Sequence record: NC_019403.1
DNA: 43,731 nt
From: Escherichia phage vB_EcoP_ACG-C91
Reading direction: 5' to 3' (one strand)
The notes under the pieces were generated by a model. That model did no database searches. It saw only the letters and a list, made by a program, of their open reading frames with translations, and had not been told where the DNA came from. Below are positions 34,601 to 36,684 of this stretch, piece after piece; within the stretch, counting starts at the first letter, position 1, and every line of letters starts with the position of its first letter. Both the position numbers and the translations under genes were made by a program.

Positions 34601-34796
34601 AGGCTTGATAGACCAAATTCCCCTAGTTGGTGTAGGTCAAGATGCTTACCGTCTGGCAGACTCTATAACTAAGTACGCTGAAGGTGACACAGAGGGCGTA
34701 GATGTGGCACGCAGAGTGTTGCGCTTAGTGCCTCTTACAAATGTAATAGGGGTCCAAAACGCATTGCGTTATGGCTTAGATGAACTGGAGGATTGA
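31611..34796 (+). CDS. Internal virion (ejection/core) protein, large
   Basis: 1061 aa; Gly/Ala-rich hydrophobic segments near N-terminus; TAAGGAGG RBS; position as T7 gp16. Confidence 0.8.
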   Translation: MEQDIQTNWASYVQSTPELFAIEAAPVSAPTIRQRNELQEQVLEAKADADVLGAVGAAFQNEWLAFGGERWYDRATADFAPQPDFEIQPERREALRFKYGTDMMQAITEGVRSEDELNFRIQNADEDLERNRRIAQAGWVGPVATVGAAVLDPVGWVASIPTGGAVKVGLVGRAVRGAIAAGVSNAAIESVLVQGDMTRDLDDIMVALGSGMAMGSVIGAVARGRATKLSEQGDDRAASIVRSADAGDRYVRAVADDSIGAMRVKGAEVLTEGAFDISSKGEDLLKTLQREGNAIDMTPRRWAGTLSALGTVVHSSQDASIRGLGARLFESPQGLGMQKASASLMQNTNLNRLKSADMNRFNDGFDLWLKENNINPVAGHTNSHYVQQYNEKVWEAVRIGMDESTPKSIRMAAEGKQAMYREALALRQRSGEAGFEKVKADDKYMPDIFDSMKARRQFDMHDKEDIIELFSRAYQNGARKIPKEVAEEIARAQVNRVADATLTGRMSFEKAMSGQTKAEYEAIMRKAGFSDEEIEKMVEALDNKETRDNISNRAKMSLGLDVTQEYKGIRMRDFMNTNVEELTDNYMKEAAGGAALARQGFSTYQAALNAIDLVERNARNTAKDSKASLALDEEVRQMREGLRLIMGKSIDADPQARSAKMLRRGRDITGVLRLGQMGFAQLGELANFMGEFGVAATTIALGKQFRFTSKALRSGDGFFRDKNLAEVERMVGYIGEDNWLTTKGARPDEFGDVTTVRGMMVHFDQSMNSIRRAQTNLSLFRMAQGSLERMTNRQIALSFIDHLEGKKVIPQKKLEELGLTQEFMTSLQNHYDANSKGSGLLGFDTMPYAMGETLANAIRRKSGLIIQRNFIGDEGIWMNKALGKTFAQLKSFSLVSGEKQFGRGIRHDKIGLAKKTAFGFALGSMVYAAKTYVNSIGRDDQDEYLEEKLSPKGLAFGALGMMSTTAVFSLGGDFLGGLGVLPSELVQSRYEAGFQTKGLIDQIPLVGVGQDAYRLADSITKYAEGDTEGVDVARRVLRLVPLTNVIGVQNALRYGLDELED

Positions 34797-35758
34797 TGAG
34801 TTATACTTTCACAGAGCATATAGCCAATGGTACGCAGGTTACTTATCCTTTCAGCTTTGCTGGCAGGGATAAGGGTTATCTCCGTGCCTCAGATGTAATA
34901 GTGGAGTCTTTCCAAGCTGGGACTTGGATAGAAGTAACATCTGGTTGGCAACTGTCTGGTACACACCAGATTACCTTTGATGTAGCACCAGTTAGGGGTT
35001 TGAAGTTCCGCATTCGAAGAGAGGTGCAAAAGGAGTACCCATATGCAGAGTTTGACCGTGGTGTTGCTCTGGATATGAAATCACTGAATGGCTCCTTTAT
35101 TCACATCCTAGAAATCACCCAAGAAATTCTAGATGGGTTTTATCCAGAAGGTTACTTCGTTAAGCAGGATGTGTCATGGGGTGGCAATAAGATAACCAAC
35201 CTAGGCAATGGTACTGAGCAGGGAGATGCGGTCAATAAAGGGCAGCTTGACGCTGTGGATGCTAAGCACACAGAGTGGAACTCACGTCAGGATTTAGAGA
35301 TCGCAGGTATTAAGAAGGGCATGACCTCTGGGGTAGCACACAGAACAATCCCTTGGTATATGTTGGCCTCTGGTGGAGAACAAATCATACGCCCACCTTA
35401 CACCTTTGATGATGCAATAGTGTTTATTAATGGTGTATTCCAGCATGAATTAGCTGGTGCAGTGTCGGTGGGGCATGACGTTATAGCCTTGTCTGAACCA
35501 CTTCAAGCAGGGGATGAGTTGTATGTACTTATTGGTAGCCGCATCACACCACCTACTAGTGAAGATACTATCCTGTTATCCCAGCAGGTAAGTGAGGGAA
35601 CACAGGCAATTGACATAGTAACTGCCTTTAAGCGTATTGATGTTTACCTCGACGGCCTGTATCAACCTAATGACTCTTATAACATTCAGGATACTACTAT
35701 TACTTTTAGTGAACCATTACCTGAATGCACACTGAGCGCCAAACTACAGTTAGTATAA
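34796..35758 (+). CDS. Tail fiber-like adaptor protein (T7 gp17 N-terminal-domain homolog)
   Basis: 320 aa; N-terminal region resembles the tail-attachment domain of T7 gp17; too short to be a full fiber. Confidence 0.8.
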   Translation: MSYTFTEHIANGTQVTYPFSFAGRDKGYLRASDVIVESFQAGTWIEVTSGWQLSGTHQITFDVAPVRGLKFRIRREVQKEYPYAEFDRGVALDMKSLNGSFIHILEITQEILDGFYPEGYFVKQDVSWGGNKITNLGNGTEQGDAVNKGQLDAVDAKHTEWNSRQDLEIAGIKKGMTSGVAHRTIPWYMLASGGEQIIRPPYTFDDAIVFINGVFQHELAGAVSVGHDVIALSEPLQAGDELYVLIGSRITPPTSEDTILLSQQVSEGTQAIDIVTAFKRIDVYLDGLYQPNDSYNIQDTTITFSEPLPECTLSAKLQLV

Positions 35759-35769
35759 GGAGGGGTTGA

Positions 35770-35994
35770 ATGATTAACTCCGAACTGGTAGACAGTGGTG
35801 TGAAGCTGGCGCCACCTGCACTTGTCTCAGGTGGGTACTTCCTCGGTATCAGTTGGGATAACTGGCTTGTAATTATGACCCTCATTTACACTATTATGCA
35901 AATGGGTTGGTTTATCTACGAGAAGGTCCGAACTATAAAACAGAGAAGAAAAGAGAAGTGTATTCAGAAGTTGAAAGAGCAGGATACATCATAA
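35770..35994 (+). CDS. Holin (T7 gp17.5-like)
   Basis: 74 aa; LAPPALVSGGYFLGISWDNWLVIMTLIYTIMQMGWFIY parallels T7 holin (AAPIVGTGV...GLSLNEWFYVAAIAYTVVQIG); single TM plus charged C-terminus. Confidence 0.7.
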   Translation: MINSELVDSGVKLAPPALVSGGYFLGISWDNWLVIMTLIYTIMQMGWFIYEKVRTIKQRRKEKCIQKLKEQDTS

Positions 35995-36344
35995 CTGAAG
36001 AAGGTTTTGTATTAAGTAAGAAGGGTAAGAGGCTGGCAGGAGCTATCAGAGAAAGAGGCTACCGTACTGTTTCTCTGCGAATTGATGGTAAGACTAAAAC
36101 TTATAAAGTACACAGATTAGTAGCATGGAAGCACGTACCTAATCCTCACAATTATAAGATAGTAAGCCATAAAGATCGCAACCCTTCTAATTGTCATAAA
36201 GACAACCTAGAGTGGTGTACTCAACAGGAGAATACAATACATGCACATTATGGTTGTTTAAACATTGACAACAAGGTTGCTGAAGCTAAACGATTAAGGG
36301 AGGAGGTTGGTCTTACCCTAAAATTGGTAGGCATTTCGGACTAG
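35907..36344 (+). CDS. HNH homing endonuclease (HNH_3 type)
   Basis: GYRTVSLRIDGKTKTYKVHRLVAWKHVPNPHNYKIVSHKDRNPSNCHKDNLEWCTQQEN: canonical HNH motif; start uncertain (ATG 35907 overlaps holin; alternative in-frame GTG 35958). Confidence 0.85.
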   Translation: MVYLREGPNYKTEKKREVYSEVERAGYIITEEGFVLSKKGKRLAGAIRERGYRTVSLRIDGKTKTYKVHRLVAWKHVPNPHNYKIVSHKDRNPSNCHKDNLEWCTQQENTIHAHYGCLNIDNKVAEAKRLREEVGLTLKLVGISD

Positions 36345-36384
36345 ACCACAAGACCGTATGGTACTGGATTAACGGGAGGCGTAC

Positions 36385-36684
36385 ATGAGCGTACACAATA
36401 AACATGCAGCTACAGAGGATGAAGTTGGCATTCTGCATGGTGCTATTACCAAAATCTTCAATAAGAAAGCACAGGCAATACTGGACACTATAGAGGGGGA
36501 CCCCGATGCAGCATTGCATTTAGTATCTGGTAAAGATATTGGTGCTATGTGTAAGTGGGTTCTAGATAACGGCATCACTGCTACACCTGCTGCACAGCAG
36601 GAAGAGTCCAAGTTATCTAAGCGCCTCAAGGCTATCCGAGAGGCATCCAGTGGTAAGAGCATCCAATTCACTAAGGAGGATTGA
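36385..36684 (+). CDS. Terminase small subunit (putative)
   Basis: 99 aa directly upstream of and overlapping large terminase; GGGAGG RBS. Confidence 0.6.
   Translation: MSVHNKHAATEDEVGILHGAITKIFNKKAQAILDTIEGDPDAALHLVSGKDIGAMCKWVLDNGITATPAAQQEESKLSKRLKAIREASSGKSIQFTKED
36470..36492 (+). promoter_or_regulatory. Promoter-like sequence inside small-terminase ORF (ACTGGACACTATAGAGGG)
   Basis: Matches the downstream 15 nt of consensus; upstream part diverged. Confidence 0.35.

Follow-up and report, generated by a model that had tools for sequence, protein, structure and literature searches.

The complete genome of Escherichia phage vB_EcoP_ACG-C91 (NC_019403.1), whose 43,731 bp make up the window analysed here, probably carries a free-standing, I-HmuI-like HNH homing endonuclease gene at the junction of the holin gene and the small terminase subunit gene (terS), as an element that appears to be decaying. 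The genes at this locus lie on the plus strand in the order holin, HNH_3 ORF, terS:

35770..35994, plus strand: holin gene, 74 aa, a type-B allele extended by 10 aa (Pfam PF10746, T7-family, E=3.7e-18)
35958..36344, plus strand: truncated, putative HNH homing endonuclease ORF, 128 aa, GTG start (HNH_3 match; exact protein AFH19869.1/YP_006987806.1)
36385..36684, plus strand: terS (Pfam PF11123, E=1.1e-15)

The Pfam matches at the locus (PF13392, PF10746 and PF11123) agree with an initial annotation of this DNA, which had placed an HNH_3 ORF between holin and terS. The holin is an exact match to AFH19868.1, and AFH19869.1 is already labelled "putative HNH endonuclease" in the public record of ACG-C91. 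The genome paper contains no discussion of the endonuclease gene (PMC3347319), and we found no paper on Vectrevirus homing endonucleases at the holin|terS site. A tblastn search with three Vectrevirus HNH proteins as queries identified no paralogues elsewhere in the ACG-C91 genome.

The ORF as delimited mechanically extends from 35907 to 36344 on the plus strand, and its HNH_3 match (PF13392, E=2e-9) passes the curated cut-off. A start at the TTG at 35907 would give an 88-nt overlap with holin, but this start was rejected, as an in-frame stop directly precedes the aligned ATG in the homologues of ULINTec4 and EC120. The GTG at 35958 aligns with that ATG and is also the GenBank start for the KY435490 and ACG-C91 genes. 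With this homologue-supported start, the overlap with holin is 37 nt, and the last 12 sense codons and the stop codon of the 74-aa holin fall within the endonuclease ORF. The overlap of up to about 88 nt given in the initial annotation thus stands only as an upper bound.

Intact alleles of the gene encode 143 aa, with an HNH_3 domain and an HTH_23 domain (PF13384, E=1.3e-5). The intact protein matched I-HmuI (PDB 1u3e) in a phmmer comparison (E=3e-11, alignment from residue 10), with no other significant sequence match in the PDB, and was assigned in PHROGs to phrog_59, HNH endonuclease (E=2e-38). An AlphaFold2 model of the intact allele (pLDDT 91.5) gave a single significant fold match in the PDB, again to 1u3e (Foldseek, E=4.5e-9, 149 aligned columns). 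In the model, strands at residues 36-42 and 45-50 precede the HNH motif, a linker helix occupies residues 103-115, and the helices of the helix-turn-helix lie at 120-127 and 131-139. In a 26-sequence alignment, residues H71, N83 and L84 do not vary, and ACG-C91 has all three. Residue 70 is Asn in 26 of the 29 homologues, Asp in I-HmuI and Ser in ACG-C91; the weight given to residues of the motif was drawn from such conservation counts across homologues. Two sub-lineages of the gene, the KY435490 type and the ULINTec4 type, are 77% identical in nucleotide and 83% in amino-acid sequence. The raw pN and pS between them are 0.10 and 0.84 (ratio 0.12), the synonymous sites being saturated under the NG86 dS correction. 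This ratio indicates that intact copies have been under purifying selection as proteins.

The copy in ACG-C91 has three changes of its own relative to the intact alleles, one in the ribosome-binding site, one a 1-nt deletion that leaves an out-of-frame remnant, and one in the codon for residue 70. The features affected by the first two are:

35943..35948, plus strand: endonuclease ribosome-binding site, weakened, GAGAAG in place of the GAGGAG of KY435490, L031, ULINTec4 and EC120 (alignments)
36303..36304, plus strand: site of a 1-nt deletion, GGGAGGAAGG to GGGAGGAGG, shifting the frame after codon 116 (alignment with KY435490, L031, ULINTec4 and EC120)
36304..36388, plus strand: helix-turn-helix coding remnant, out of frame, …GWSYPKIGRHFGLDHKTVWYWINGRRT followed by the stop (three-frame translation; HTH_23 in the intact allele)

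The first of these reflects a G to A change at 35946, which is synonymous in the holin frame. At the second, ACG-C91 lacks one A after 36303 relative to KY435490, the metagenomic contig L031, ULINTec4 and EC120, and tblastn of the intact protein against ACG-C91 returned two HSPs in different frames. The ACG-C91 product keeps residues 1-116, which are followed by 12 unrelated, out-of-frame residues. As a result of this shift the ORF stops at 36344, and not at 36385, where the element had been taken to end; the ancestral stop TGA, at 36386-36388, overlaps the terS ATG as ATGA. Because the frame changes after codon 116, the C-terminal helix-turn-helix is lost, with both helices 120-127 and 131-139 removed. 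The ACG-C91 ORF therefore retains the N-terminal beta-sheet region and the HNH motif of an I-HmuI-like enzyme but not the C-terminal helix-turn-helix, which the intact alleles possess. The third place is the codon for residue 70, where an AAC to AGC change at 36166 results in Asn70Ser, adjoining the invariant His71. The description of the ORF as a "canonical" HNH_3 endonuclease was thus too strong, given the absence of the helix-turn-helix and the Ser in place of the near-invariant Asn before His71.

The deletion, Asn70Ser and the ribosome-binding-site change are all specific to the ACG-C91 lineage, as judged against L031, KY435490 and the ULINTec4/EC120 outgroup. L031, whose backbone is of the ACG-C91 type (about 96-97% identity over the gp37 region), has the gene intact, and of the 28 members of the 90% cluster only ACG-C91 encodes the 128-aa allele. 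The helix-turn-helix domain is also hit by independent frameshifts in L030/P0002 (+1 T) and in P0038, so that three independent frameshifts all lie within the helix-turn-helix region; the detection of frameshifts was biased to C-terminal truncations, since a protein shifted early would not cluster with the intact protein. From the sequence of these lesions, the ACG-C91 copy is most likely inactive and is a probable pseudogene, and the element seems to have reached the degeneration phase of the homing cycle. Programmed -1 frameshifting at the deletion site is unlikely because there is no slippery heptamer.

One could argue that the frameshift is an error of sequencing or assembly in the deposited genome and that the phage itself has an intact, active gene. 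The genome was obtained by 454 pyrosequencing (PMC3347319), a method prone to errors in the length of homopolymer runs; the deletion is of the AA to A kind, and the 128-aa allele was seen on no other contig. Against this, the 454 coverage was 195-930x (PMC3347319) and the run of bases at the deletion is only two long. Asn70Ser, at a 90%-conserved position, and the change of GAGGAG to GAGAAG are not errors of the 454 type, yet they occur in the same gene of the same lineage, and frameshifts in the same domain arise independently in other assemblies. Given the two-base run and the two accompanying changes, a consensus error is the less likely reading, and we regard it as rather unlikely; it could account for the frameshift alone but not for Asn70Ser or the ribosome-binding-site change.

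The distribution of the gene was determined in 84 phage (Vectrevirus) records of GenBank that match a 2.5-kb region around the locus. The insert was found in four of them, at 99.2% identity in KY435490 and at about 77% in EC120, ULINTec4 and 6948, and in none of 14 IMG/VR relatives at the holin|terS junction. The junction is empty in K1E (AM084415), K1-5, VEc3, mutPK1A2 and about 80 other records. At the empty sites of K1E, K1-5, VEc3 and mutPK1A2, a 64-aa holin overlaps the GTG start of terS by 17 nt, and in two Proteus phages (Acadevirus), with holins of 62 and 63 aa, holin and terS overlap directly by 14 or 17 nt. Close relatives are thus polymorphic for presence and absence of the gene at a single site, as the initial annotation had predicted for a comparison across K1E, K1-5 and SP6-like phages. 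In a divergent Molineuxvirinae contig, whose nearest phage relatives in GenBank, the Proteus Acadevirus phages, are only about 66% identical to it, this junction contains a third variant, P0003 (71% identity). Outside the clade, identity to the nearest homologues falls below 45%, and these come from scattered phages that infect many hosts. Dozens of contigs of 44-46 kb in public assemblies encode the intact protein. We also observed that the intact 143-aa gene has no annotation in the ULINTec4 and EC120 records, and apparently none in that of 6948, the gap between holin and terS having been left empty. The two genes are located as follows:

1257-1688 of the ULINTec4 locus sequence (L002): unannotated intact endonuclease gene
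1205-1636 of the EC120 locus sequence (L005): unannotated intact endonuclease gene

This distribution bears on the alternative raised in the initial annotation, a terminase-associated HNH, taken here as a protein similar to HK97 gp74 that aids DNA cutting by terminase in packaging. Its position would suit such a role, the gene being directly upstream of terS and, in intact alleles, translationally coupled to it through the ATGA overlap. SP6/T7-like phages do not package from cos sites; their substrate is concatemers bearing direct terminal repeats. About 95% of close relatives lack the gene and still package normally, their terS and terL being nearly identical, and it is also absent from all IMG/VR relatives examined and from the Acadevirus (Proteus phage) relatives. 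Furthermore, the protein belongs to HNH_3 and has I-HmuI-type architecture with a helix-turn-helix, unlike the short PF01844-type proteins, and it is truncated in ACG-C91. On these grounds of dispensability, family and truncation the terminase-associated reading was rejected, and we consider it extremely improbable.

The element is fitted closely into both of its neighbours. The sequence that distinguishes carriers from non-carriers runs from 35866 to 36385, and its right boundary is the first base of the terS start codon, which is ATG or TTG in carriers and GTG at empty sites. No phage promoter, sigma-70 promoter or terminator was found within this cassette, so the endonuclease gene must be read through from upstream. 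Two of its parts belong to the flanking genes:

35866..35957, plus strand: type-B 3' segment of holin, co-inherited with the endonuclease gene (protein alignment; fixed differences; GC 34.8%)
36374..36379, plus strand: terS ribosome-binding site GGGAGG, within the 3' end of the endonuclease gene (sequence)

The type-B segment is 85-100% identical among insert carriers and 51-61% identical to the alleles of empty sites, from which carriers are separated by 30 fixed differences at 35866-35939. The type-B half of the holin reads …WLVIMTLIYTIMQMGWFIYEK…, as compared with …WVLIATFIYTVLQIGDWFY.K… in type A, and the type-A half is conserved even in the Proteus phages. In tblastn searches of GenBank phages, the type-B tail occurred only in the four insert carriers. 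The frameshift, the 37-nt overlap, the variant 3' half of holin and the rebuilt translation start of terS were all absent from the initial annotation.

At the protein level, the same 90% cluster of a large protein collection also contains type-B holins of 65-67 aa that end in ERTQ, EHTQ or ERT. Translated out of frame, terS codons 1-6, such as those of K1-5, give exactly these tails, and from this we infer that insert-free type-B sites exist. Pattern scans of metagenome, genome and viral collections gave no match to the DNA of such loci, and only type-A holins were found in IMG/VR. If type-B empty sites exist, the insert proper would be about 35954-36385, essentially the ORF alone, and it would separate the terS start codon from the ribosome-binding site once used by terS. 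In that case the type-B half of holin would be donor flank, co-converted in every invasion of a type-A genome. As insert-free type-B holins apparently exist, the variant holin half may be the allele of the element's ancestral host and not a protective adaptation.

The cassette resides in backbones that do not agree with it. By gp37 type, EC120 groups with K1-5 and VEc3 (98-99%), and ULINTec4 and KY435490 group with K1E (99%). The gp37 tail-fibre/adaptor gene of ACG-C91 itself (34793-35758) was observed to form a third allele class, with only 76% identity to the K1E type and 68% to that of K1-5; the genome paper, too, describes the region as dissimilar (PMC3347319). In pairs of carriers, gp37 is 68-76% identical for ACG-C91 and 73% for ULINTec4/EC120, as against an endonuclease gene that is 99.5% identical between ACG-C91 and KY435490 and 99.1% identical between ULINTec4 and EC120. 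One cassette is thus found in three different backbones. The mismatch profile of ACG-C91 and KY435490 defined the following region:

35824..36431, no strand assigned: low-divergence tract common to ACG-C91 and the K1E isolate KY435490, a candidate gene-conversion tract

The tract contains 5 differences in 608 nt and spans the cassette with about 40 nt on each side. The flanks of these two phages differ at 5-8 positions per 100 nt downstream and at 14-34 per 100 nt upstream. A comparable low-divergence tract is common to ULINTec4 and EC120. Segment identity matrices and mismatch profiles therefore agree in that the element conflicts with the backbone and in that the cassette is closer than its flanks. 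The GC content of the element is 40.3%, compared with 45.3% for the genome. Between the two endonuclease sub-lineages (35958-36389 compared with ULINTec4/EC120), pS is 0.84, but identity is 85-86% for the type-B holin half and 90-95% for terS. The saturated gene body next to closer flanks implies that the gene body is older than the flanks or was exchanged independently of them. The proposal that the ORF is a free-standing homing endonuclease gene acquired as a mobile element gains support from its sporadic presence, the incongruent backbones and the I-HmuI-like protein.

It might be asked whether a nuclease is needed for this pattern at all. The gene could be passive cargo, spread without nuclease drive by ordinary homologous recombination at conserved flanks and perhaps conferring some other benefit, such as damage to competitor genomes. 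With 90-99% conservation, the flanks (the 5' end of holin and terS) would be suitable for recombination, and exchange between them could give the same mosaic pattern; mosaicism is common in Vectrevirus, where gp37 exists in at least three types. Several observations weigh against this account. The characterised members of the family are site-specific homing nickases (PMC2988022), and the inserted DNA amounts to exactly an ORF, at a junction between genes. Endonuclease genes are inserted at three more sites in Vectrevirus-like genomes, one of them upstream of the RNA polymerase gene and the other two in the packaging module, and purifying selection has acted over the whole protein, DNA-binding parts included. 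Spread as mere cargo is, in our judgement, quite improbable, and we favour spread by homing.

Intronless homing and the action of nicking HNH enzymes have been reviewed in general terms (PMC2988022). By analogy with I-HmuI and the T4 Mob and Seg enzymes, we infer a cleavage activity, a target location and a means of self-protection for the element described here. During mixed infection, the intact enzyme would nick or cut insert-free genomes in the conserved region of the holin 3' end and the terS 5' end. Recombinational repair off an insert-carrying genome would then copy both the gene and the type-B 3' segment of holin next to it. Carriers would be shielded from their own enzyme by the divergence of that segment and by the disruption of the junction. 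The insertion of the ORF is almost exact: it begins 9 nt past the ribosome-binding site that presumably served terS at the empty type-B site, and its 3' end, with a new ribosome-binding site and the ATGA overlap, restores terS translation.

The close fit raises the question of how such an element is lost. The holin stop codon with 12 codons before it and the terS ribosome-binding site with the first base of the start codon are contained in the ORF; hence a simple deletion would damage both genes. One speculation is that the element has become entrenched, and that a dead copy decays by frameshifts that spare the holin and terS signals. The swapped and extended holin tail could also change the timing of lysis and give the cassette a phenotype of its own. 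We consider entrenchment a doubtful and, on balance, unlikely explanation.

Other endonuclease genes were observed in the vicinity of this locus in related phages. A second HNH gene, 34-37% identical, lies at the terS|terL junction of mutPK1A2 (L003, 1550-1980), VEc3 (L007, 1496-1939) and EC120 (L005, 1934-2377). In mutPK1A2, the HNH part (p49) and the helix-turn-helix part (p50) of this gene are separate ORFs, a break of the same type as that in ACG-C91. In K1E (AM084415; L052, 1978-2511), the putative homing endonuclease gp40.5 interrupts the large terminase gene, leaving the parts 40A and 40B. With gp40.5 located in terL, the holin-terS-terL module has at least three distinct endonuclease insertion sites in the genus. 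Elsewhere, P0004 (143 aa), a 43%-identical paralogue, is encoded immediately upstream of the RNA polymerase gene in the Vectrevirus-like Logan contigs L032-L035 (3001-3432), and L035 has one more HNH_3 gene near it. A separate observation concerns terS itself, within which ACG-C91 has, at 36476-36499, the sequence AATACTGGACACTATAGAGGGGG, to be compared with the phage RNA-polymerase promoter consensus ATTTACTGGACACTATAGAAGAG found at about ten other sites. The match is kept at the same place in all nine of the other Vectrevirus loci examined and, as a predicted promoter, would drive transcription of terL.

The value of these results lies mainly in annotation and comparative genomics. Free-standing HNH homing endonucleases are already well established in lytic phages; the present one is an ordinary case and opens no new biological question. 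It accounts for a 440-nt indel and a polymorphism in holin length (64 compared with 74 aa) in a genus used for therapy and capsule studies, and the gene is unannotated in several GenBank records (ULINTec4, EC120 and 6948). The holin-terS-terL module is a hot spot for endonuclease insertion and a likely recombination boundary in Vectrevirus. Points of modest interest are the tidy integration of the element into both neighbouring genes and its apparent decay.

Among known systems, the closest counterpart is I-HmuI, the HNH nicking enzyme of Bacillus phage SPO1. It has the same domain order of beta-sheet region, HNH motif, linker helix and helix-turn-helix, with approximately 32% identity over roughly 100-150 residues. 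I-HmuI is intron-encoded and has 174 aa, whereas the gene described here is free-standing, encodes 143 aa when intact and is known from its sequence and a structural model. The other HNH genes of Vectrevirus (VEc3 gp46, that of EC120, mutPK1A2 p49/p50, K1E gp40.5 and P0004) belong to the same HNH_3(+HTH) superfamily, share 34-43% identity and are likewise sporadic. Three of these five are in the packaging module; they are distant paralogues at other insertion sites, and none is present in ACG-C91. In its genomic setting, the element resembles the free-standing endonucleases of the T-even phages, the HNH nickases MobA and MobE as well as SegF and SegG, which are also intergenic and sporadic and whose flanks are co-inherited (PMC2988022). 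For SegF and SegG, intronless homing comes with co-conversion and marker exclusion. Those enzymes differ in their C-terminal domain and belong to another phage group, the present gene being one of Autographiviridae (Vectrevirus) known from sequence. A further difference from the T-even enzymes is that the ORF described here overlaps both of its neighbours, bearing the stop codon of holin and the ribosome-binding site of terS.
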